The notes under the pieces are model-generated. The model did not search any database, was not told where the DNA came from, and saw nothing but the letters and a program-made list of their open reading frames with translations. 64,000 nt of DNA from Candidatus Omnitrophota bacterium. GTDB lineage: Bacteria > Omnitrophota > Gorgyraeia > Gygaellales > Profunditerraquicolaceae. Made by a program: the position numbers and the translations under genes. The stretch lies in NCBI GenBank assembly GCA_903852325.1, contig CAINQO010000035.1:34117-98116 (forward strand), written 5' to 3'. Within the stretch, counting starts at the first letter, position 1. Each line of letters begins with the position of its first letter. Shown here one piece after another: positions 4,809 through 54,489 of the stretch.

Positions 4809-5678
4809 ATGGATAAATACATCGAAAAATTCGCCCGCTATCTGGAAATCGAGAAGAATTATTCTTTGCATACGATCATAAATTATAAATTGGACCTGCA
4901 GGGGTTCAATAAATTTGTTTCCGGGACCGAGCTGGAAAAGATCGATTACCTGACCTTGAGAAAATATCTGGCGGTCCTGAAAGAAAAAAATTTCGGTAAC
5001 CGCACCGTCGGGCGCAAGCTTTCCACCCTGCGCAGTTTTTTCCGTTTTCTTTGCCGGGAAGGCCATCTGAAGACCAACCCGATCCTGATGCTTTCCAGCC
5101 CCAAACTGGATAAACGCCTGCCTTCTTTTATGACCGAGGATGAGGTTTACCGGTTGATCGAATCAGCTTTCGCTAAAACCGCCCGGGATGATCTGGGACT
5201 GCGTGACCGGGCGATCCTGGAAGTATTTTATTCCAGCGGCCTGCGTATCTCCGAACTGGTCGGTTTAAACCTGGAGGATATCGATTTTATCAGCGGTATC
5301 CTGAAGGTCAGGGGGAAAGGCAAAAAGGAGCGCATCGTCCCCATCGGAGAAACCGCGCTCTCGGCGGTAAGGAAATACCTGGATAAAAGGAAAAAACAAA
5401 CGGAGGCTTTATTCTTAAACAATCATTCCGTCCGGATCACCGCCCGCGGGGTGCGTTTTGTGCTGGCAAAATACCTTAAGTCCACCGGGATGAAGCCTGG
5501 GGTTTGCGCGCATACTTTCCGGCACTCTTTCGCTACGCATCTTTTAAATCGCGGGGCGGATTTGCGCACGGTGCAGGAGCTGCTGGGCCATGCAAACCTT
5601 TCTTCCACGCAGATTTATACGCATTTAACTACAGACAAATTAAAGAGCGTCTACGATAAGGCGCATCCGCACGCCTAG
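4809..5678 (+). CDS. xerC: Tyrosine recombinase XerC/XerD (CodV-like)
   Basis: C-terminal catalytic motif HTFRHSFATHLLNRGADLRTVQELLGHANLSSTQIYTH. 289 aa. Follows dprA-topA as CodV/XerC does in Firmicutes-like synteny. Confidence 0.85.
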   Translation: MDKYIEKFARYLEIEKNYSLHTIINYKLDLQGFNKFVSGTELEKIDYLTLRKYLAVLKEKNFGNRTVGRKLSTLRSFFRFLCREGHLKTNPILMLSSPKLDKRLPSFMTEDEVYRLIESAFAKTARDDLGLRDRAILEVFYSSGLRISELVGLNLEDIDFISGILKVRGKGKKERIVPIGETALSAVRKYLDKRKKQTEALFLNNHSVRITARGVRFVLAKYLKSTGMKPGVCAHTFRHSFATHLLNRGADLRTVQELLGHANLSSTQIYTHLTTDKLKSVYDKAHPHA

Positions 5679-9356: not shown

Positions 9357-9734
9357 ATGTATCAGGTGGAGATTACCCATGATCAGGAGATGGCGTTTAC
9401 GGCCAGGGCCGGGGAAGCGCAGCTGGTGATCGACGCGCAGGGGAAAGGATTTACTCCGCTGGATGCGCTTTTTGCCGGATTAGGCAGCTGTGTCGGGGTG
9501 TATATTCGAAAATACGCCGTGGGCGCAAAATTAGATTTGAAAAATTTTAAGGTTAATGTTTCCGGGGAGCTTTCCGGATCCCCGCTTACTTTTAAACAGG
9601 TCAACGTGCAGATCGATCTTAACGGCTGTCAATTGGATGAACGCAGGCAAAAAGCGCTGTTGGAGTTTATAAAAAATTGCCCGGCGCATAATACTTTAAA
9701 AGGCAACCCAACAGTGGAGTTTAAAATATGCTAG
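9357..9734 (+). CDS. OsmC/Ohr family protein
   Basis: 125 aa with the paired cysteines and C-terminal CPAHNTL motif typical of OsmC-like peroxiredoxins. Confidence 0.8.
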   Translation: MYQVEITHDQEMAFTARAGEAQLVIDAQGKGFTPLDALFAGLGSCVGVYIRKYAVGAKLDLKNFKVNVSGELSGSPLTFKQVNVQIDLNGCQLDERRQKALLEFIKNCPAHNTLKGNPTVEFKIC

Positions 9735-10450
9735 AAATAAAATTAAGGCAATCCGGCAGTTGCATTATTTTGGATTTGTGCGGGCGCATCGACGTGGATT
9801 CGGCAAACCTGGTCGAGGTGGTCGGCCAGTGCGTGCGGGACGGTTACCCGGACCTGCTCTGCAACCTGGAGGAGGTTACCGGGATAGACTATATGGGGAT
9901 ATCGGTGATCGTCATCGCTTATAAAGAAGTAGTGAACCATCACGGGAGGATGAAATTCGTCAATATCCCGGCGCAATTACGCAGCGTATTCGCGGTTTCC
10001 GGAATGGACCGGGTAGTGGAGATTTACGGCAGCGAAGAGCTGGCGCTCAACAGTTTTAAGGAGGATAAAATTATCGAGGAAATCAAGCGGATGCAGCTGC
10101 GCCGCCGGTTCAAGCGCCTGCCGATCGATTTAAAAATAGAATTAAAATCCAAAACCGACTCTTCCGCCGCATGCCAGAAAGCGGACATCCTTAATTTAAG
10201 CGCGGTGGGGGCTTTTATTTTCGGTTGCGGCAAATTCAGGCTGAAGGATGAAGTGGTCATGAAAATGAAGCTCGGGCCCAAGCAGGAGGAGCTTCAGCTT
10301 GACGGGCGGGTGGTATGGGTACCGGATAAAGAGGTGCAGATCCACGAGTATCCGGGGATTGGAGTGGAGTTTTATGATATTTCTTCGGCCAATCAACAAA
10401 GGTTGATCGAGTTTATCGACCGGAACCTTTCCTCGCTGCCTCAGGAATGA
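9728..10450 (+). CDS. STAS domain (anti-sigma-factor-antagonist-like) fused to a C-terminal PilZ c-di-GMP-binding domain
   Basis: The N-terminal about 110 aa resemble SpoIIAA/STAS (ILDLCGRIDVDSANLVEVV...MGISVIVIAYKEVVNHHGRMKFVNIPAQLRSVFAVSGMDRVVEIY). The C-terminus has PilZ signatures QLRRRFKR (RxxxR) and DILNLSAVGAFIF (D/NxSxxG). Confidence 0.65.
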   Translation: MLEIKLRQSGSCIILDLCGRIDVDSANLVEVVGQCVRDGYPDLLCNLEEVTGIDYMGISVIVIAYKEVVNHHGRMKFVNIPAQLRSVFAVSGMDRVVEIYGSEELALNSFKEDKIIEEIKRMQLRRRFKRLPIDLKIELKSKTDSSAACQKADILNLSAVGAFIFGCGKFRLKDEVVMKMKLGPKQEELQLDGRVVWVPDKEVQIHEYPGIGVEFYDISSANQQRLIEFIDRNLSSLPQE

Positions 10451-16754: not shown

Positions 16755-16819
16755 GCAATATACCTGGCGCTTAGTGGTATTGCGCCAGTACGCGCCACGT
16801 GGCGCGAGGGGCGGGATGA

Positions 16820-16894
16820 CCCCGCACCATCTTCTAATTCACGCTTTAAGTCCTAAGGTTTAATAACAATTAACTATAAGGATGGTGCGGGGTG
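16820..16894 (+). promoter_or_regulatory. Leader element copy A (anti-SD arm CCCCGCACCATCTTCT paired with SD/start arm AAGGATGGTGCGGGGTG) upstream of the GT4 gene
   Basis: The 5' arm at 16820..16835 is complementary to 16878..16894, which holds the RBS and the GTG start at 16892. An AT insertion is matched in both arms. The CGCGCCACGTGGCGCG palindrome lies upstream. Confidence 0.6.
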
Positions 16895-17992
16895 CGGATT
16901 TTATTTTTAGCCAATCATCTTAATGTCGGGGGGATCTCCAGTTACTTGCTGACCTTGGGTAGCGGATTGAAAGAAAAAGGGCATGAGGTTTATTTGGCCT
17001 CCGGGGGCGGTGAATTAGAGGAAAAATTCCGGCAGGCCGGAATAATCCTGATCAATGTCCCCTTGAAAACAAAAAGCGAGATCAGTCCGAAGATCCTGAT
17101 CAGTTACTGGAAATTAAAAAAGGCCGCTGCCGGTTTGCGGATCGAGCTTATTCATTCGCACAGCCGGACCACCCAGGTTTTGGGATGCTGGCTGGGCCGC
17201 TCCCTGGGCAGGCCGCATATTTTTACCTGCCACGGTTTCTTTAAACCGAAACTGCCGCGCAAGGTTTTCGGCTGCTGGGGCCAAAGGGTAATTGCTATCA
17301 GCTCCCAGGTCAAAGAGCACTTGACCGCGGATTTTAAATTCAGCGAAAATAAGATTAGCGTGATCCATAACGGCATCGACACGCAAAAATTCGGGGATTT
17401 TTCGGGAAGGGACCGCTTGCGCAGCAGTTTAGGGGTCGCCCCGGATGGTTTTTTGATCGGGATCATCGCCCGCCTCTCCGATGTGAAGGGGCATCTTTAC
17501 CTTATCCGGGCGATGCCGGAGATTTTAAAAAAATTCCCCGGGACCAAATTAGCGATAATCGGTCAGGGTAAGACCGAAGGCTCTTTGGTCAAAGAAACAG
17601 GGAATTTAGGGTTAGAGGGCAATATTTTATTTGTCCCGGAAGCAAAAGATACCCGGGAATGGCTTTGCGCCATGGATGTTTTTGCCATGCCTTCGCTGCA
17701 GGAAGGCTTGGGGCTGGCTTTGATGGAAGCGATGGCTCAGGGTTTAGCCGTGGCCGGATCGGCGGTAGGGGGGATCAAAACCCTGGTCCAGGATAAAATT
17801 ACCGGACTGCTGGTCCCGGCGCGGGATGCGGGGGCGCTGGCGCAGGCGATCATCTCTTTGCTTGGGGATCCGGATTTACGCCGTAATTTAGGGGATCAGG
17901 CGCGCGAATTTATCGCCGCTAATTTTTCTAAAAAAGAAATGGTGGAAAAGACCGAAGGCCTTTACCGGCAGGTTTTAAATCCCAATGAGTGA
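16892..17992 (+). CDS. GT4-family glycosyltransferase (GTB fold)
   Basis: MRILFLANHLNVGGISSYLL... with E-x7-E region LQEGLGLALMEAMAQGLAVAGSAVGGIKTLVQDKITGLLVP. GTG start. 366 aa. Confidence 0.85.
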   Translation: MRILFLANHLNVGGISSYLLTLGSGLKEKGHEVYLASGGGELEEKFRQAGIILINVPLKTKSEISPKILISYWKLKKAAAGLRIELIHSHSRTTQVLGCWLGRSLGRPHIFTCHGFFKPKLPRKVFGCWGQRVIAISSQVKEHLTADFKFSENKISVIHNGIDTQKFGDFSGRDRLRSSLGVAPDGFLIGIIARLSDVKGHLYLIRAMPEILKKFPGTKLAIIGQGKTEGSLVKETGNLGLEGNILFVPEAKDTREWLCAMDVFAMPSLQEGLGLALMEAMAQGLAVAGSAVGGIKTLVQDKITGLLVPARDAGALAQAIISLLGDPDLRRNLGDQAREFIAANFSKKEMVEKTEGLYRQVLNPNE

Positions 17993-21250: not shown

Positions 21251-21281
21251 GCTCGATTTTGGCTATCCAGTAATGCTTGAT

Positions 21282-21310
21282 TTGTCAGCAAATTGTGTTA
21301 AAATCATTAT
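21282..21310 (+). promoter_or_regulatory. Candidate sigma70 promoter giving a (near-)leaderless transcript for the DHS-like gene
   Basis: TTGTCA, 17 nt, CATTAT, then 5 nt to the ATG at 21316. Confidence 0.35.
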
Positions 21311-21315
21311 CTATT

Positions 21316-22245
21316 ATGATCAACTTAAAGAAGGTTAAAAGATATTCGCTTAAAGCCCGTTTAAGCAAGGTAAATAAGGGGGATTTTGCCCTTAAACCGG
21401 CTAAAGGCAGGAGTTTTTCCGTTTTTTTTGACTCCTTACCTAATATTTTAAAAGCCAAAGATTTACGCTCGGTTTCTGCCGATATTATCGCGGCGCGCCG
21501 GAAAAATAAAGGGGTGATTTTAATGGCCGGGGCCCACGTGATCAAGTGCGGGCTTAATCCGGTTTTGATCGAGTTGTTGGAAAAAAAAGTGATTACCTGT
21601 ATCTGCCTTAACGGGGCCGGATTGATCCACGATTTTGAGATCGCCTACCAGGGGAAGACTTCGGAAGATGTGGCCGCCAACCTCAAAGACGGGAAATTCG
21701 GGATGGGGATCGAGACCGCGGATTTTATCAACGCCGCGGTCAAAGAAGGGACTGAGGCGGGCTTTGGATTAGGTTATGCCTTAGCCAATAAAATGGCCGG
21801 GGCAGCTTTACCCAATAAAGATCTAAGCCTGATTTATAATGCCTATAAGCGTAAAATCCCGGTTTGTGTTTTTGCGGCGATCGGTACGGATATAATCCAT
21901 CAGCACCCTTCTTTCGACGCTGCGGCAACCGCCGTGGGCTCATTGCGGGATTTCCATATCCTGGTGGAGAGGATCCGCTCCTTGAATCAGGGGGGAGTGG
22001 TTTTAAATTTCGGCTCCGCGGTGCTTTTGCCTGAAGTATTTTTAAAGGCTTTGAACCTTGCCCGCAACCTGGGCAGCAAAGTGAAAGATTTTACTTCCGC
22101 TAATTTCGATATGATTTACCAGTACCGCGCGGCACAGAATGTAGTGAGCCGTCCCACCGCTTCCGGGGGTAAAGGCTATTATATTATCGGTCACCATGAG
22201 ATCATGCTGCCGCTTTTAGCCCAAAGTATATTGGAAAAAATCTGA
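21316..22245 (+). CDS. Deoxyhypusine synthase (DHS)-like NAD-binding family protein, function unknown, embedded in the LPS/heptose locus
   Basis: Three blocks follow the DHS pattern. AGAHVIKCGLNPVLIELLEKKVITCICLNGAGLIHDFE matches SN.ISSG.RE.I..L.....VDV.VTTAGGVEED. IPVCVFAAIGTDIIHQH matches IPVF.PA.TDGS.GD. LNQGGVVLNFGS matches GGGVVKHH. Start moved from the track's 21277 to the internal ATG at 21316 because 21277 overlaps the putative -35 box. Confidence 0.5.
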   Translation: MINLKKVKRYSLKARLSKVNKGDFALKPAKGRSFSVFFDSLPNILKAKDLRSVSADIIAARRKNKGVILMAGAHVIKCGLNPVLIELLEKKVITCICLNGAGLIHDFEIAYQGKTSEDVAANLKDGKFGMGIETADFINAAVKEGTEAGFGLGYALANKMAGAALPNKDLSLIYNAYKRKIPVCVFAAIGTDIIHQHPSFDAAATAVGSLRDFHILVERIRSLNQGGVVLNFGSAVLLPEVFLKALNLARNLGSKVKDFTSANFDMIYQYRAAQNVVSRPTASGGKGYYIIGHHEIMLPLLAQSILEKI

Positions 22246-22246
22246 C

Positions 22247-22317
22247 CCCGCACCTTCTTCGTATTCGATCTGAAGGTCAGGGGTAAAAAATAGTTAATAA
22301 TAGGAAGGTGCGGGGTG
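22247..22317 (+). promoter_or_regulatory. Leader element copy B (CCCCGCACCTTCTTC ... AGGAAGGTGCGGGGTG) upstream of hldE
   Basis: The 5' arm starts 2 nt after the upstream stop. An internal GAAGGTCAGGGG can alternatively pair with the anti-SD. The 3' arm supplies the SD and GTG start (22315). Confidence 0.6.
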
Positions 22318-23328
22318 AAGAACCTAAAAGAGATTGTCCGCAAATTCAAGCGGGCTAATATTTTGGTCGTCGGAGACCTGATCCTGGATGAATACATCTG
22401 GGGCGCGGTGGAGAGGATCTCTCCGGAGGCTCCCGTGCCGGTGCTTTGGGCCAACAAACGTACTTTTGTTCCCGGGGGCACCGCTAACGTGGCCAATAAC
22501 ATCGGCTCCTTCGGGGCAAAAGTGACTCTTTTGGGGGTCACCGGTTCCGACGCGAACTCCAAGATTTTGCTGGGCGAATTAAAGAAGAGAAAGATCGATA
22601 CGCGGGGTATTTTTGTCGAAAAAAATCGGCACACTACGGTCAAGACGCGGATCCTGGCCGGGCATCAGCAGGTAGTCCGGGTGGATTGGGAACATACCCA
22701 TGATCTGTCTCAAGAGTTAAACGATAAGATTTTAAAATTCATCCAGAAGAATATCGATGATTTCGACGCGATCATTATCGAGGATTACGGCAAAGGGGTA
22801 ATCAATGTCCCGCTCTTGAAAACGCTGATCGCTTTGGCGAAAAACCATAAAAAAATCATTACCGTTGATCCGAAAGAGGAGAACTTTCAGTTTTATCGGT
22901 CGGTAGATTCGATCACTCCTAACCGCAAGGAGCTGGAAAACGCGATAAGGAATTTGAAGATCCAGGACACGACCAACGGTTTCAAGATCAATACGGATAA
23001 ACTCTTTACGGATAAGGATGTGGACCGGGCTGCCCGGGAGATCCTGGAATACCTGCGTCTTGATTCTATTCTGGTTACCCTGGGGGAGCACGGGATGAAA
23101 CTTTTGGAAAAGAACGGCCGCCTTACCCATATTCCCACGGTAGCCCAGGAAGTTTTCGATGTTTCCGGCGCGGGGGATACCGTAATCAGCACCTTTACCC
23201 TGGCTTTAAGCGTGGGCGCTTCCAAATTAGAGGCGGCGCACATCGCCAATTTTGCCGCAGGGATAGTGGTAGGTAAATTGGGCACGGCAGTGACCAACAC
23301 TAAAGAACTATTAGAAAGGATTAAATAA
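22315..23328 (+). CDS. hldE: D-glycero-beta-D-manno-heptose 7-phosphate kinase (HldE domain I / RfaE1, PfkB family); no fused adenylyltransferase domain
   Basis: ILVVGDLILDEYIWGAVERISPEAPVPVL and the C-terminal DVSGAGDTV ribokinase motif. 337 aa, GTG start. Confidence 0.85.
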   Translation: MKNLKEIVRKFKRANILVVGDLILDEYIWGAVERISPEAPVPVLWANKRTFVPGGTANVANNIGSFGAKVTLLGVTGSDANSKILLGELKKRKIDTRGIFVEKNRHTTVKTRILAGHQQVVRVDWEHTHDLSQELNDKILKFIQKNIDDFDAIIIEDYGKGVINVPLLKTLIALAKNHKKIITVDPKEENFQFYRSVDSITPNRKELENAIRNLKIQDTTNGFKINTDKLFTDKDVDRAAREILEYLRLDSILVTLGEHGMKLLEKNGRLTHIPTVAQEVFDVSGAGDTVISTFTLALSVGASKLEAAHIANFAAGIVVGKLGTAVTNTKELLERIK

Positions 23329-24881: not shown

Positions 24882-24899
24882 ACTTTAATAAGGTGCGGG

Positions 24900-25868
24900 A
24901 TGAGTATTGATTTGATCAAACGGGCAAAAGAAGTTTTGGAAATCGAAGCGCAGGCAGTGCGCCGGTTAAAGGGGTGCCTGGATAAAGGTTTTATTAAAGC
25001 GGTTGAGCTGATCCTGAAGAGCAAGGGCAGGGTAGTGGTTAGCGGAATGGGCAAGACCGGAATTATCGCCCAAAAATTTTCCGCGACTCTTGCTTCGACC
25101 GGGACCCCCAGTTTATTCCTGCATACCGCCGAAGCTATTCACGGGGATTTAGGCAAGGTTACCGCGGATGATGTGGTGATCATCCTTTCTAACAGCGGTT
25201 CGACCGAGGAGATGAAACAGCTTTTGCCGATCCTCAAAAAGATCGGCGCTCCGATCATTTCTTTGACCGGCAACACCAAATCCATTCTGGCCAAATACAG
25301 CGATGTGGTCCTGGATGTCTCCGTGAAAAAAGAGGCCTGTCCGTTAGGTTTGGCCCCCACGGCTTCCACTACCGCGGCTTTGGCGATGGCCGATGCCCTG
25401 GCGGTCTGCCTGCTGGAACGTAAGGGGTTTAAAGAAAAGGATTTTGCATTTTTCCATCCTGGGGGCACTTTAGGCAAGCGCCTGCTTTTGAGCGTCGCGG
25501 ATATCATGCGCCAGGGGCAGTCTAATGCCATTGTCCGCGAGGATAAATTGGTGGCGGAAGTTTTGTTGGCGATTACCCGGGCCCGGGCCGGCAGCGCTAT
25601 TGTGGTGGATAAGCAGGGAAAACTGAAGGGGATATTCACCGACGGAGACCTGCGCCGGCATTTAGCCACCGACAAGTATTTACCGCAGCGGCCGATCAAA
25701 GAAGTAATGACCAAAAACCCCACGGTAGTGAGCAAAGATATGCTGGCGGCAGAGGCGATGCGGATATTACAGGCCAGGAAGATCGATGAAGTCCCGGTGG
25801 TGGATAAATTCAGGCGCCCGGTGGGCTTATTGGATGTCCAGGACCTGCTTAAAGCCGGATTAATTTAA
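24900..25868 (+). CDS. kdsD: Arabinose-5-phosphate isomerase (SIS plus tandem CBS)
   Basis: SIS motif VVVSGMGKTGIIAQKFSATLASTGTPS plus C-terminal CBS pair. 322 aa. SD AAGGTGCGGG precedes the ATG. Confidence 0.9.
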   Translation: MSIDLIKRAKEVLEIEAQAVRRLKGCLDKGFIKAVELILKSKGRVVVSGMGKTGIIAQKFSATLASTGTPSLFLHTAEAIHGDLGKVTADDVVIILSNSGSTEEMKQLLPILKKIGAPIISLTGNTKSILAKYSDVVLDVSVKKEACPLGLAPTASTTAALAMADALAVCLLERKGFKEKDFAFFHPGGTLGKRLLLSVADIMRQGQSNAIVREDKLVAEVLLAITRARAGSAIVVDKQGKLKGIFTDGDLRRHLATDKYLPQRPIKEVMTKNPTVVSKDMLAAEAMRILQARKIDEVPVVDKFRRPVGLLDVQDLLKAGLI

Positions 25869-27403: not shown

Positions 27404-28106
27404 GGGCCTGGCTAAATCCTATGACGGTCGCTGGGTGGTTAAGGGCGTGGATATCACGGTCAAGCGCGGGGAGATCGTCGGGCTTTTAGGCCCCAACGGA
27501 GCCGGCAAGACTACTACTTTTTATATGATCGTCGGGATCGTCCCCCCCAACAAGGGCACGATCGTTTTTGATAACCATGAAATCACCCGGATGGCGATCC
27601 ACGAGCGGGCGCGTTTCGGGATCGGCTATCTTGCCCAGGAACCCTCGATATTCCGGAAACTGACCGTGGAAGAAAATATCAACGCGATCCTGGAGACTTT
27701 GCCTTTGAGCCGCGCGCAGAGAAAAAACCGGCTGGCGTTTTTGCTGGAGGAGTTGAATATCGCGCACCTGGCAAAGCATAAAGCCTACACTTTAAGCGGC
27801 GGAGAGAGAAGGCGCCTGGAGATCACCCGGGCGCTGGTGACCAATCCTTCTTTTATCCTGCTGGATGAACCTTTCAGCGGGATCGACCCGATCGTCGTCA
27901 ATGAAGCGCAGGAGATCATTAAGGAATTAAAGGCCAAAGGCCTGGGTATTCTTTTGACCGACCATAATGTGCGGGAGACCCTGGCGATCACCGACCGGGC
28001 GTATTTAATTTCCGAAGGGGCGATCCTTATTTCCGGATCCGCGGAGGAGCTGATTAATCACCCTCAGGCCCGCCAGGTTTATTTAGGTGAGAAGTTTAGG
28101 ATGTAA
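27384..28106 (+). CDS. lptB: LPS export ABC transporter ATP-binding protein
   Basis: Walker [12 protein letters not shown], signature [11 protein letters not shown], Walker B ILLDEP. 240 aa. Confidence 0.9.
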
Positions 28107-28248
28107 CCCCGCACCTTCTTCTGTATTCGGAAGAAAAACGGATTGATTAAAGGCGCGGGACAATAATAACCATGGTCATTTCTTTAAACATCAAGGTTCA
28201 AAGCTTAGATGCAGGGAATGATATAATTAAGAAAGAAGGTGCGGGGTG
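28107..28248 (+). promoter_or_regulatory. Leader element copy C (CCCCGCACCTTCTTC ... AAGAAGGTGCGGGGTG) upstream of tig, with a 25-codon uORF
   Basis: The 5' arm begins at the first nt after the lptB TAA. The uORF at 28173..28250 ends with TGA overlapping the tig GTG (GGTGA). Confidence 0.6.
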
Positions 28249-29133
28249 AAAACCGAAGTTAAGAAATTAGACGGAACTAAACGTGAAATTAATGTCGCCG
28301 TGACCGGCGACTTGGTCAAAAATAAATTTGAAGAAGTTTTCGCACAGGTCGCCAAAGAAGCCAAGGTCCCGGGTTTTCGCCCGGGAAAAGCGCCCCGGGA
28401 TCTTCTGGAAAAGCATTACGGTTCCAGCGTCCATGAGCAGGTGTTAAAGGAGCTGGTCCCGGATGTGTATAACCAGGCGGTCGCGGCGGAAAAACTCGAT
28501 GTCATTGAGCTGCCCCAGATCACCGATGTGCAGCTGGATCGGGCCAGCCTTTCTTTTAAAGCGGTCGTGGAGGTCAGCCCGGAAATTACGCTGAAGAATT
28601 ATAAAAACCAGGTAATTAATTATAAGCTGCCGGTTGTTTCCGCGGATGAAGTGAAACGCCAGATCGACTCGGTCAAGGAATCGCGTAAGGCCGAAAACCT
28701 GGATGATAAATTCGCCCGCTCCCTGGGTTATCCTGATTTAGGGGAATTGGAAAAAGCGGTGGAAAGACAGATCTTTCTTACCAAGGAGAATCAGGAACGC
28801 CAGCGGATTGAAAATGAATTAATCGAAAATATTACCAAAGGGGTGGAATTTAAGCTGCCGCAAGGATTGGTGGACCGGCAGGTTCAGGATATGCTGCGGC
28901 AGACCAAGATCGATTTGGCGATGAAAGGGCTGCCCCGGGAGAAGATCGACGCGCAGGATAAATTGCTTTTAGAGGGGATCGAACCGGAAGCAAAAAAGCA
29001 GGTCAAGATTTACCTGATCCTGGCGCAGATCGCGAAAAAAGAGAATATCGCCATCGACGACCATATGCCGCGCAAGGTGATGGAGTTTCTGCTGGGTGAA
29101 GCAGAGTGGAAGGCTGCACAAGAGAATAAATAG
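28246..29133 (+). CDS. tig: Trigger factor lacking the central FKBP/PPIase domain
   Basis: N-terminal ribosome-binding domain (MKTEVKKLDGTKREINVAV..., GFRPGKAP signature) joined directly to the C-terminal chaperone arm. 295 aa versus about 430 typical. GTG start. Confidence 0.8.
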   Translation: MKTEVKKLDGTKREINVAVTGDLVKNKFEEVFAQVAKEAKVPGFRPGKAPRDLLEKHYGSSVHEQVLKELVPDVYNQAVAAEKLDVIELPQITDVQLDRASLSFKAVVEVSPEITLKNYKNQVINYKLPVVSADEVKRQIDSVKESRKAENLDDKFARSLGYPDLGELEKAVERQIFLTKENQERQRIENELIENITKGVEFKLPQGLVDRQVQDMLRQTKIDLAMKGLPREKIDAQDKLLLEGIEPEAKKQVKIYLILAQIAKKENIAIDDHMPRKVMEFLLGEAEWKAAQENK

Positions 29134-35852: not shown

Positions 35853-37198
<1,346 letters not shown>

Positions 37199-53550: not shown

Positions 53551-53719
53551 AGGAAGGGCGGGATGAACCCTGCATTTTCTTGTTATTCAATATTAAAGTC
53601 TTAGGAATTTGATGATTAAACAGAAGGAAGGTGCGGGGGTGAATCCCGCTCCTTCTAATTGTTCAATGCTAAAACCCATACGTTTTAAAGAATTCAATAA
53701 GAAAGAAGGAGCGGGATGA
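53550..53719 (+). promoter_or_regulatory. Tandem (degenerate plus intact) leader element copies E1/E2 upstream of scpA, each with a uORF
   Basis: Pseudo-start AAGGAAGGGCGGGATGAA (53550..53567), then uORF1 MNPAFSCYSILKS (53563..53604). Second pseudo-start AGAAGGAAGGTGCGGGGGTGAA, anti-SD TCCCGCTCCTTCT (53644..53656) and uORF2 MNPAPSNCSMLKPIRFKEFNKKEGAG (53639..53719). Real SD AGAAGGAGCGGGA (53704..53716), exactly complementary to the anti-SD with two compensatory changes relative to the consensus. Confidence 0.6.
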
Positions 53720-54489
53720 ATTATAAAATCCGCTTAGAGATGTTTGAGGGGCCCTTAGACCTGCTGCTTTACCTGGTCAAGAAAGACCACCTGAATATCT
53801 ACGATATCCCCATCGCCAAGGTCACCCAGCAATACCTGGAATATATCAACCTGATGCAGCTTTTGGATTTGAATGTGGTCGGGGAGTTTTTGGTGATGGC
53901 GGCGACCCTGATGCAGATAAAATCCAAGATGCTTCTTCCGGCGGAGGAGTTGGCCGCGCAGGAGGAGGAAGAGGATCCGCGCGCTGAGCTGGTCAAGCGG
54001 CTTTTGGAATATGAAAAATTCAAACAGATCGCCGAAAATTTAAAACAGCGGGAAGCCAGCCAGCAGGAAGTTTTTAAACGCCCCAAGACCGAGACCCCGC
54101 AGGAGCTGCAGGTGCAGGATAAGGAAGAGGAAAAGTATTTTGAAGCCAGCATTTTTGACCTGATCGATGCCTTTTCCCGGGCGATCAAAGACATCCCCCG
54201 GGAAGTTTTTTACGAAGTGATTAAGGATCAGTTTACGGTCGAGCAGAAGGTGCATGATATTCTGCATTTATTGCTGGTAGAAACAAAAATCAAGCTTTCG
54301 GATCTTTTCTCCAAGAGCAAGGGCAAGCTAGAGATCATCGCCATATTTTTGGCGATCCTTGAGCTGGCGAAAATGAAGGAGATCCTTGCCCGCCAGGACG
54401 CCGATTTTGCCGACATTATCATTATCCGCAACAAGGAAAACATAATCCCTTATGAACGAAGAGACCAGACACCCGCTGCTGAAGGCTAA
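53716..54489 (+). CDS. scpA: Segregation and condensation protein A
   Basis: FEGPLDLLLYLVKKDHLNIYDIPIAKVTQQYLEYI. 257 aa. Confidence 0.85.
   Translation: MNYKIRLEMFEGPLDLLLYLVKKDHLNIYDIPIAKVTQQYLEYINLMQLLDLNVVGEFLVMAATLMQIKSKMLLPAEELAAQEEEEDPRAELVKRLLEYEKFKQIAENLKQREASQQEVFKRPKTETPQELQVQDKEEEKYFEASIFDLIDAFSRAIKDIPREVFYEVIKDQFTVEQKVHDILHLLLVETKIKLSDLFSKSKGKLEIIAIFLAILELAKMKEILARQDADFADIIIIRNKENIIPYERRDQTPAAEG

Follow-up and report, generated by a model that had tools for sequence, protein, structure and literature searches.

A 64,000-nucleotide stretch of Candidatus Omnitrophota DNA (assembly GCA_903852325.1, contig CAINQO010000035.1; hereafter the window) contains, between the open reading frames (ORFs) 21277..22245 and 22315..23328, a 69-nt gap in which one sequence can pair either with the Shine-Dalgarno (SD) region of the downstream kinase gene or with an internal segment that would leave this region free. 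The question raised by this gap, here called leader B, is whether it is a switch belonging to the kinase gene (hldE), as a first-pass annotation had proposed, or something of a different kind. From comparison of the locus with its orthologues and with similar sequences elsewhere, we conclude that leader B is very probably a dispersed element and not an hldE riboswitch. It is probably a copy of a non-autonomous palindromic insertion element resembling MITEs (miniature transposable elements with inverted repeats), which rebuilds the start of the gene that it displaces, would depend on ribosomes from upstream for the unmasking of this start, and carries a third arm that would be passive. The element family is widespread in Candidatus Omnitrophota.

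Layout and folding of leader B

The upstream ORF has a weak deoxyhypusine-synthase-like (DS-like) match, and the downstream ORF encodes a PfkB kinase, annotated at the source as D-glycero-beta-D-manno-heptose-7-phosphate kinase, whose GTG start (22315-22317) is aligned with the ATG of orthologues. The gap reads, in order, TGA-CCCCGCACCTTC-TTCGTATTCGATCT-GAAGGTCAGGGGT-AAAAAATAGTTAATAATAG-GAAGGTGCGGGG-TGA and comprises the following features.

22243..22245, + strand: stop codon (TGA) at the end of the DS-like ORF, also the left one of the two TGA target copies
22245..22265, + strand: 5′ terminal repeat (anti-SD arm, or 5′ arm), with core ACCCCGCACCTTC at 22245-22257 and a weaker A/T extension to 22265
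22272..22284, + strand: internal imperfect copy of the 3′ arm (the third arm), GAAGGTCAGGGGT, followed by AA; alternative partner of the anti-SD arm
22285..22303, + strand: A/T-rich spacer, holding the 3′ subterminal repeat extension (22296-22303) and stops in the GTGA register
22304..22316, + strand: 3′ terminal repeat (SD arm, or 3′ arm) GAAGGTGCGGGGT, containing the SD-like AAGGTG and the first two start-codon bases, G and T
22315..22318, + strand: GTGA, in which GTG is the kinase start and TGA the right copy of the duplicated target

The segments A22245-C22257 (ACCCCGCACCTTC) and G22304-T22316 (GAAGGTGCGGGGT) form 13 uninterrupted Watson-Crick pairs. A repeat search returned the corresponding inverted repeat (22245-22265/22296-22316; 21 nt, 86%), a shorter one between 22245-22257 and 22272-22284 (13 nt, 85%), and a direct repeat of 79% between 22272-22290 and 22304-22322, that is, the internal partner resembles the SD arm. 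All coordinates and spacings given in the first-pass annotation were correct: the anti-SD arm begins on the upstream stop codon (A22245 being the last base of TGA 22243-22245), the internal partner lies 12 nt after the anti-SD string and 30 nt before AGGAAGG, and the two helices, one freeing and one sequestering the SD, are mutually exclusive. The alternative helix (G22272-T22284) also exists, but its proposed small bulge does not, since the arm reads CCCCGC and not the CCCCTG of the suggested CAGGGG/CCCCTG pairing; the helix consists of 5 bp, a 2x2 internal loop (GC/CA) and 6 bp. Likewise, no upstream ORF (uORF) runs through this copy to the kinase start, as had been noted, because TAATAATAG puts stops into the register that ends at GTGA.

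The whole leader was predicted to fold at -32.3 kcal/mol (z = -3.8) with SD and GTG buried in a hairpin (22245-22257 x 22304-22316), as is expected of an RNA thermometer, and the 13-bp, G+C-rich terminal-repeat helix accounts for approximately -27 kcal/mol. Pairing of the 5′ arm with the interior reached -17.5 kcal/mol; shuffled interiors gave -6.7 on average, and 0 of 200 came as low. When each helix was enforced in turn, the gap in favour of the closed ensemble was 9.9 kcal/mol (4 °C), 8.7 (37 °C) and 7.3 (75 °C). With a bias of this size, neither temperature nor a modest ligand energy would flip the leader at equilibrium, and a thermometer or unassisted equilibrium switch is excluded by these constrained ensemble energies over the whole range of 4 to 75 °C. 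A transcript stopping before the SD arm was predicted to form the hairpin of 5′ arm and internal segment at -19.8 kcal/mol; on the best direct path, refolding from the alternative into the closed form would have to cross a barrier of 13-22 kcal/mol (10-37 °C), which makes a kinetic trap physically plausible.

A family of elements at gene junctions

To place leader B among its orthologues, we fetched 80 genome loci with a kinase identity of 64-90% (L-numbers denote fetched loci and WIN the window locus). Approximately 50 of about 78 orthologous loci have no leader, only a TGA/ATG overlap that shares bases (...GAGAAGATATGAAAAA...). Eleven genome loci are filled, by at least three subfamilies: CGCACCTTC arms are found at the kinase junction of WIN, L004, L005, L019, L074 and L029, CGCCCTTCC-type arms at that of L006, L030 (two in tandem), L042 (two in tandem) and L044, and CGTTAGAAAC arms in L033. 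Among eight further metagenomic relatives, seven are empty (ATGA overlap, no leader) and the eighth, L205, has a decayed copy. The filled sites are scattered over the kinase tree, with differences even between close sisters: L019 and L004 are filled where their sisters L018 and L027 are empty, and in one sister trio L028 is empty while L029 holds a subfamily 1 copy and L033 a subfamily 3 copy. What a filled site has in excess of an empty one is the element and a second TGA(N), as in L018 (...AATATGATAAAG) versus L019 (...AATATGAT[CCCC...GGGG]TGATAAAG); TGA or TGAN stands on both sides of the filled sites and once in the empty sisters (L018/L019, L027/L004, L028/L029/L033). Copy B, in the same manner, occupies a former ATGA stop/start overlap of the DS-like gene and the kinase gene, flanked by duplicated TGA. 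The same polymorphism was seen at the junctions before the GT4 (site A), kdsD-like (24900) and tig (site C) genes. The leader is identical in four same-species contigs, and strain-level variation was uninformative. From the polymorphism between relatives we consider it likely that the element is, or was, mobile.

One fetched locus, L067, has two family copies (9708-9960) within the 3′ end of the DS-like gene, with apparent insertion at an internal cATGAg of the conserved HHE codons and disruption of the C-terminal frame of the gene; one of the two lacks an ORF downstream, and its interior is turned round with respect to the TGA flanks.

The family is also repeated within the window itself, where the 12-mer CCCCGCACCTTC and its complement occur as facing pairs at 16.8, 22.2, 28.1, 35.9 and 53.6 kb. 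A covariance model added a sixth copy at 53564-53641, and three solo arms are present besides the six copies. The start codon at the end of each 3′ arm belongs to a different gene (GT4 glycosyltransferase, PfkB kinase, trigger factor (tig), adenylosuccinate synthetase (purA) and ScpA (scpA)), so that an element of about 70 nt precedes five unrelated genes. Besides copy B, the following members are present.

16806-16819, + strand: solo SD-arm-like GAGGGGCGGGATGA, preceding copy A
16816..16896, + strand: copy A, before the GT4 glycosyltransferase gene; compensatory arms CACCATC/GATGGTG, internal partner decayed
24890..24902, + strand: solo 3′ arm remnant AAGGTGCGGG+ATG, forming SD and start of a SIS/CBS (kdsD-like) gene; no 5′ arm
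28103..28250, + strand: copy C, with a 116-nt interior and an internal AAAGGCGCGGGAC partner, between an lptB-like ABC ATPase gene (stop TAA 28104-28106) and the trigger factor gene
35854..35934, + strand: copy D, before purA; 26-codon through-uORF from ATGA to GTGA, one G.U pair in the arm helix
53548-53720, + strand: tandem array of solo arm, copy F and copy E between a Tyr/Trp-tRNA synthetase-like gene and scpA
53552-53566, + strand: solo arm GGAAGGGCGGG+ATGA, first unit of the array before scpA
53564-53641, + strand: copy F, 5′ arm ACCCTGCATTTTC with three C>U changes, all G.U-pairable with its own 3′ arm
53640-53720, + strand: copy E, compensatory arms CGCTCC/GGAGCG; 26-codon through-uORF starting at the GTGA of copy F

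At the kdsD-like junction a full element is present in L004 and L019, and a plain ATGA overlap in most orthologues; the solo arm of the window looks like a domesticated remnant, kept because it supplies SD and start codon.

These observations bear directly on the proposal of a leader that senses a ligand or temperature and thereby regulates hldE. Such a leader would account for the two mutually exclusive helices, for the high predicted barrier between them, with which the RNA could be bistable, and for the location of the gene in an operon for lipopolysaccharide (LPS) core and 3-deoxy-D-manno-octulosonic acid (Kdo) synthesis (GT9, GT4, kdsB, kdsA, kdsD, kdsC, lptC/A and lptB-like genes). However, the same element stands before tig, purA, scpA and the GT4 gene, and most orthologous hldE genes lack it. 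The genes after the other window copies have nothing to do with heptose, which leaves the suggested link to ADP-heptose intermediates unsupported, and a regulon of one pathway was rejected because the downstream genes are unrelated. No aptamer-sized domain is conserved, conservation in the 46-nt interior being confined to the repeat copy and an A/T tract; Rfam 15 gave no match at the gathering score anywhere in the 64-kb window, whether to tRNA, rRNA or any other family, and locally only noise at E<=10. Together with the free-energy gap of about 7-10 kcal/mol from 4 to 75 °C, these data contradict a sensing leader and leave it very improbable.

A scan of metagenomes for the 3′ arm gave at least 120 matches, about three quarters of them chance 15-mers in unrelated G+C-rich DNA, and among the matches listed were at least some 25 more copies with the same anatomy. 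All 36 copies scored from other genomes and metagenomes provide, with the (G/A)TG that their 3′ arm forms, the start of an ORF of 60 codons or more; nearly all are flanked on the 5′ side by xTGA, and in approximately 20 this TGA terminates a long ORF upstream. Near-identical copies occur at different genes of one genome (two in L079, two in L166), tandem copies are found, and nested copies are flanked on both sides by TTCA, within the conserved 'tattca' of the host copy. Alignment of 16 short copies gave the consensus xTGA, A(C/T)CCCGCACCTTC, t..tATTcA.., ttAgAAGGc.tAGGGtT, A/T-rich ..AATAA.aaa, GAAGGTGCGGG(G/A), TGA, in which the start codon is made of the element's last G or A and the duplicated TG, with the SD AAGGTG 4-6 nt upstream.

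The two terminal arms covary. Across copies, 98.1% of the cells of the helix between 5′ and 3′ arm are paired and five pairs have changed on both sides, as in copies A (CACCATC/GATGGTG) and E (CGCTCC/GGAGCG); all measures lie above 500 of 500 shuffles and above all slid controls. Mismatches lean toward G.U over A.C (including those of copy F and L005), an asymmetry that we do not use as evidence of selection at the RNA level because it is confounded by the C-rich 5′ arm, by SD and start constraints on the 3′ arm and by the ascertainment of the metagenome copies.

Members of the ACCCCGTTAGAAAC subfamily also occur away from gene starts, in both orientations and clustered (L033 4222-4276, 10616-10666 and 16334-16388; L065 12625-12770; L038 6814-6848). 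Their flanks are TAGA, TTTA or TAAA duplications, from which the target of the superfamily looks like T-N-A(-N) and not strictly TGA. A minimal 28-nt member lies at L033 6861-6894 (ATGA-ACCCCGCTCCTG-CGTG-CAGGAGCGGGGT-GA), with a tetraloop but without a third arm; since its 5′ ATG and the GTG downstream share a reading frame, translation of the palindrome may add 10 residues to the N terminus, in which respect it resembles the RPE-type in-frame insertions of Rickettsia.

As to the surroundings of the window copies, two more G+C-rich palindromes of unrelated sequence (GGCGC...GCGCC and GCGCCACGTGGCGC) occupy 16769-16806, between a GT4/GT9 fusion gene and copy A. The long ORFs with a credible family match that were examined in the window are all on the + strand, and many overlap by 1 or 4 nt.

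The third arm and the unmasking of the start

The first-pass annotation had named an absent or non-complementary internal segment in orthologous leaders as the sign of a fortuitous alternative helix. The segment is present and complementary in L004, L019 and L074 (-14 to -20 kcal/mol). Among the 19 short copies a third arm is significant in 11, and in the reverse sense in none, and with the covariance model every copy scores 25-45 bits higher on the gene-sense strand. The internal partner is therefore not fortuitous; it is a feature of the family with a fixed polarity. In register, 69% of the cells of the helix between 5′ arm and internal segment are paired, versus 42-51% in slid controls. The proximal partner matches its own arm in three subfamilies with different arm sequences, the pairs of arm and partner being ACCCCGTTAGAAAC/TTTCTAATGGGGT, ACCCCGTTACATCTC/GAGATTTAAGGGGT, CCCAGCCC/GGGCTGG and CCCGGCCC/GGGCCGG, and the partner tracks the 5′ arm, for instance at position 5, where L006 has an A-T pair and L042a a G-C pair. 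As long as the SD arm has not been made, the hairpin of 5′ arm and partner is predicted at -13 to -21 kcal/mol across copies; it is the minimum-energy structure in the decayed copies L005 and L205 and in L006, L030b and L042a, where the distal, SD-closing helix has been lost. Of the 10 copies abutting a long upstream ORF, 9 have a strong third arm, compared with 2 of the remaining 9, a post hoc comparison of copies that are not all independent.

In a separate observation, the 14-mer CTGAAGGTCAGGGG is identical at 22269-22282, in the internal partner of copy B, and at 5299-5312, within a XerC/D-type tyrosine recombinase gene (4809..5678, Phage_integrase Pfam match); about 5e-4 chance matches are expected per 64 kb, no link was found, and the identity may be coincidence.

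Based on these features we propose the following course of events. The 3′ terminal repeat ending ...GAAGGTGCGGGG and the duplicated TGA rebuild the SD (AAGGTG) and the start (G+TG) of the displaced gene. In the polycistronic mRNA, the paired terminal repeats would bury SD and GTG, and translation of the kinase would thus come to depend on ribosomes arriving from upstream. For copy B the unmasking ribosome would be the one that terminates at the TGA abutting the helix. Ribosomes unwind mRNA about 11 nt 3′ of the P-site codon, and about 15 nt lie within their mRNA channel; when TGA 22243-22245 occupies the A site, the ribosome would be expected to open approximately 22245-22254, the G+C core of the anti-SD, releasing GTG and the SD-arm spacer. 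In copies with an intact ATG, the same unmasking could be achieved by a short uORF that reads through the 5′ arm. Since the third arm is transcribed before the SD arm and closes a loop of only 14 nt, it would be the first to pair with the anti-SD and, as a kinetic trap, would keep the SD open; after departure of a ribosome, the 5′ arm would likewise find the internal copy again, over a 14-nt loop, more quickly than the SD arm, over one of 46 nt, and the SD would then stay open until slow refolding. The third arm would in that case be a passive, constitutive competitor that eases the cost of the terminal-repeat hairpin, neither a sensor nor a regulated switch. We infer the unmasking and the kinetic part from established properties of ribosomes: unmasking of the start by upstream ribosomes is in our judgement slightly favoured, and any role of the third arm at the RNA level is conceivable, although we lean against it.

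Transcripts that start inside the element and lack the anti-SD would offer another way to an open SD, if the centre of the element were an outward promoter with its -35 box before the G-rich segment and its -10 box after it. The interior is A/T-rich, and in L004 a TTTAGA-17-TAAAAT spans the internal segment. Copy B, however, has no sigma-70-like site, and 5 of 36 copies contain one, where shuffled interiors gave 4.5 +/- 1.8; with no enrichment and none in copy B, an internal sigma-70 promoter was rejected in a scan that covered sigma-70-like sites only, and we regard an outward promoter as scarcely credible.

Nine of the 36 scored copies have an open frame from a retained ATG (5′ ATGA) through the element to a TGA that overlaps the new start (3′ GTGA). 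This through-uORF typically has 26 codons, MNPAPS...KEGAG* (also as MNPAPS...NKKEGAG*), and is carried by the window copies at 35853-35932 and 53639-53718 and by L029, L049, L098, L116 and L145, among others; by a rough estimate its frequency is several times that expected by chance for an A/T-rich interior of 50 nt. The frequency of these frames suggests that a translational relay is the ancestral design. Copy B is without it, its 5′ flank being CTGA where other copies have ATGA (ATG to CTG) and its frame having stops. A more ambitious reading takes the family for a 'self-neutralising' superfamily of mobile elements specialised for stop/start overlaps, in which each copy would bring a complete relay: the anti-SD/SD hairpin, the SD and start-completing terminal G, often the 26-codon through-uORF from ATGA to GTGA, and an anti-anti-SD arm making the mRNA kinetically bistable (predicted barrier >13 kcal/mol) and so preserving coupling after insertion. 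Selection on the RNA, not a transposase, would then explain the sense orientation and the co-evolution of the three arms. We consider this reading doubtful.

Several observations weigh against the MITE-like element with a passive third arm that we favour. The target duplication is just 3-4 bp. Site C is not a simple insertion with duplication, because the native intergenic SD region of the lptB-tig junction (TAAGAAAGGGAAnnATG in most orthologues) is missing from the filled window copy C, where the element's 3′ subterminal AAGAAAGAAGG resembles that native region. The same junctions are filled in distant genomes, for which hot spots, or ancient insertions and then precise losses, are needed. 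Between arm pairs 250-4000 nt apart in the window or the fetched loci there is no transposase, only neighbouring small copies, and mobility is argued from polymorphism only, because no transposase or autonomous element with these ends was found there. The covariation of the terminal arms could also stem from the DNA level, through terminal-repeat requirements or quasipalindrome correction. At equilibrium the alternative state is negligible, accounting for <=2e-5 of the ensemble at every temperature from 4 to 75 °C, and the refolding barrier is a heuristic estimate that leaves out pseudoknotted toeholds and ribosomes. The third arm is decayed in window copies A, D and E and absent in L029. Within subfamily 1 its covariation with the 5′ arm is not above shuffles, and the internal segment of that subfamily is therefore a conserved, partly degenerate copy of the 3′ arm and not a co-evolving partner. 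Finally, tandem duplications of the 3′ arm are recurrent (L004_16901, L142, window 53552/53626), so that a mechanical origin could regenerate third arms without function.

Some of these points are what would be expected if the third arm were a functionless relic, an earlier 3′ end, now degenerate, that a tandem or nested insertion or a partial duplication had left behind and that descendant copies had inherited, with only the terminal hairpin and the SD and start mattering. This applies to the lack of covariation within subfamily 1, to the decay or loss in the four copies just named and to the thermodynamically negligible alternative state; in addition, the third arm of copy B is followed by TAA, versus TGA at the true end, and perfect tandem 3′ arms and tandem or nested elements indicate that such duplications arise repeatedly. 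A relic would not, however, be expected to match its own arm in three subfamilies with different arms, to form a proximal hairpin that is better preserved than the distal helix (L005, L205, L006, L030b and L042a), to stand always in the SD-like sense or to be enriched at true gene junctions. We therefore regard a relic as unlikely, albeit an explanation to be reckoned with.

The matching of partner and arm could also reflect a role at the DNA level, the 5′ arm and proximal partner forming a hairpin or subterminal site recognised by a transposase, or a REP-like unit, with incidental effects on the RNA. In subfamilies 2 and 3 this hairpin is tight and REP-like, with a loop of 3-5 nt; co-variation of three arms across subfamilies is what co-evolution with a cognate transposase would produce; and some members of subfamily 3, flanked by TAGA or TTTA, are not at gene starts. 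Against this, the strict sense orientation to the downstream gene is unexpected for a DNA element with symmetric ends, and one nested copy shows that insertion in the opposite sense relative to the TGA strand is possible. Moreover, the G.U-compatible mismatches of the L033 partner, copy F and L005 are mismatches in DNA, the element ends lack the GTAG/CGTC head of REP elements, and neither a transposase nor a RAYT gene was found in the window and fetched loci. A purely DNA-level role thus appears improbable.

If the favoured reading is true, a mobile element makes up a sizeable share of the gene starts of these uncultivated bacteria (in the window, 5 of about 60 genes), with consequences for operon models and, because the starts are GTG with identical SD contexts, for gene calling. 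The element would then be a clear natural example of transposable DNA that is adapted to insert at ATGA stop/start overlaps and leaves translational coupling intact, and the three-arm design would be a simple portable module to couple or insulate cistrons.

Relation to known repeats and leaders

As an entity, the element is closest to bacterial MITEs such as Correia and ERIC, and it is also near the REP2 and Borrelia IR repeats. Bacterial MITEs (Correia/NEMIS in Neisseria, ERIC/IRU in enterobacteria, MITEAba12) are non-coding, multi-copy sequences of about 70-150 nt with terminal inverted repeats and a short target duplication. The Omnitrophota element likewise has terminal inverted repeats and is multi-copy, dispersed and patchy on the kinase tree, and it shares with MITEs the presence/absence polymorphism, co-transcription with neighbours and long mRNA hairpins. 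It differs in lying almost only at xTGA stop/start junctions in the gene sense, in having a 3′ repeat that together with the duplicated TGA makes the downstream SD and start codon, and in its conserved third arm mimicking the SD arm; furthermore, no cognate insertion sequence was found in the window and fetched loci. The SD arm may also resemble the terminal repeat of IS5 and, in 16S rRNA, the 3′ strand of helix 45, but nothing here relies on such a likeness.

REP/REPIN elements, which are mobilised by RAYT transposases and have a GTAG/CGTC head, are similar in being G+C-rich imperfect palindromes with hairpin doublets, tandem or nested arrays and intercistronic mRNA hairpins, and the hairpins of 5′ arm and partner in subfamilies 2 and 3 are REP-like. 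Unlike these, the Omnitrophota element has the ends ACCCC.../...GGGGT and is found at gene starts rather than after gene ends, and the arm of subfamily 1 is itself no palindrome; no RAYT gene was seen in the window and fetched loci.

The REP2 repeats of Neisseria and the IR repeats of Borrelia are dispersed directly upstream of ORFs, where they carry a ribosome-binding site (RBS), a start codon and internal stem-loops, and REP2 has no terminal inverted repeats and contains a promoter (Delihas 2011, PMC3184786). The likeness consists in a repeat that provides the RBS and start codon of the downstream ORF. In contrast to REP2, the element has clear terminal repeats and no promoter signal, and it lies inside operons at stop/start overlaps.

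Translational coupling through RBS unmasking is known from the coat and replicase genes of phage MS2 and from structured intercistronic regions of E. coli operons (reviewed in PMC12548453). There, the RBS is sequestered by sequence at or just after the end of the upstream cistron and opened by ribosomes that arrive there, an arrangement that the element fits by geometry, since the stop abuts the helix. The differences are that the masking helix is brought by a mobile element and repeated at many unrelated junctions, and that the coupling here is predicted.

Riboswitch platforms, RNA thermometers (ROSE, fourU) and cis anti-antisense leaders share with the element the logic of SD, anti-SD and anti-anti-SD. 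The element, however, is without an aptamer or gene-specific conservation, and its 13 unbroken Watson-Crick pairs, with a bias of about 9 kcal/mol throughout, are not meltable. The comparison carries a caution for motif searches, namely that repeated SD-sequestering hairpins with alternative pairings can be selfish DNA and not riboswitches. Full-text literature searches returned no published description of the element, which is apparently an undescribed variant of a known element type with an unusual relation to translational coupling.

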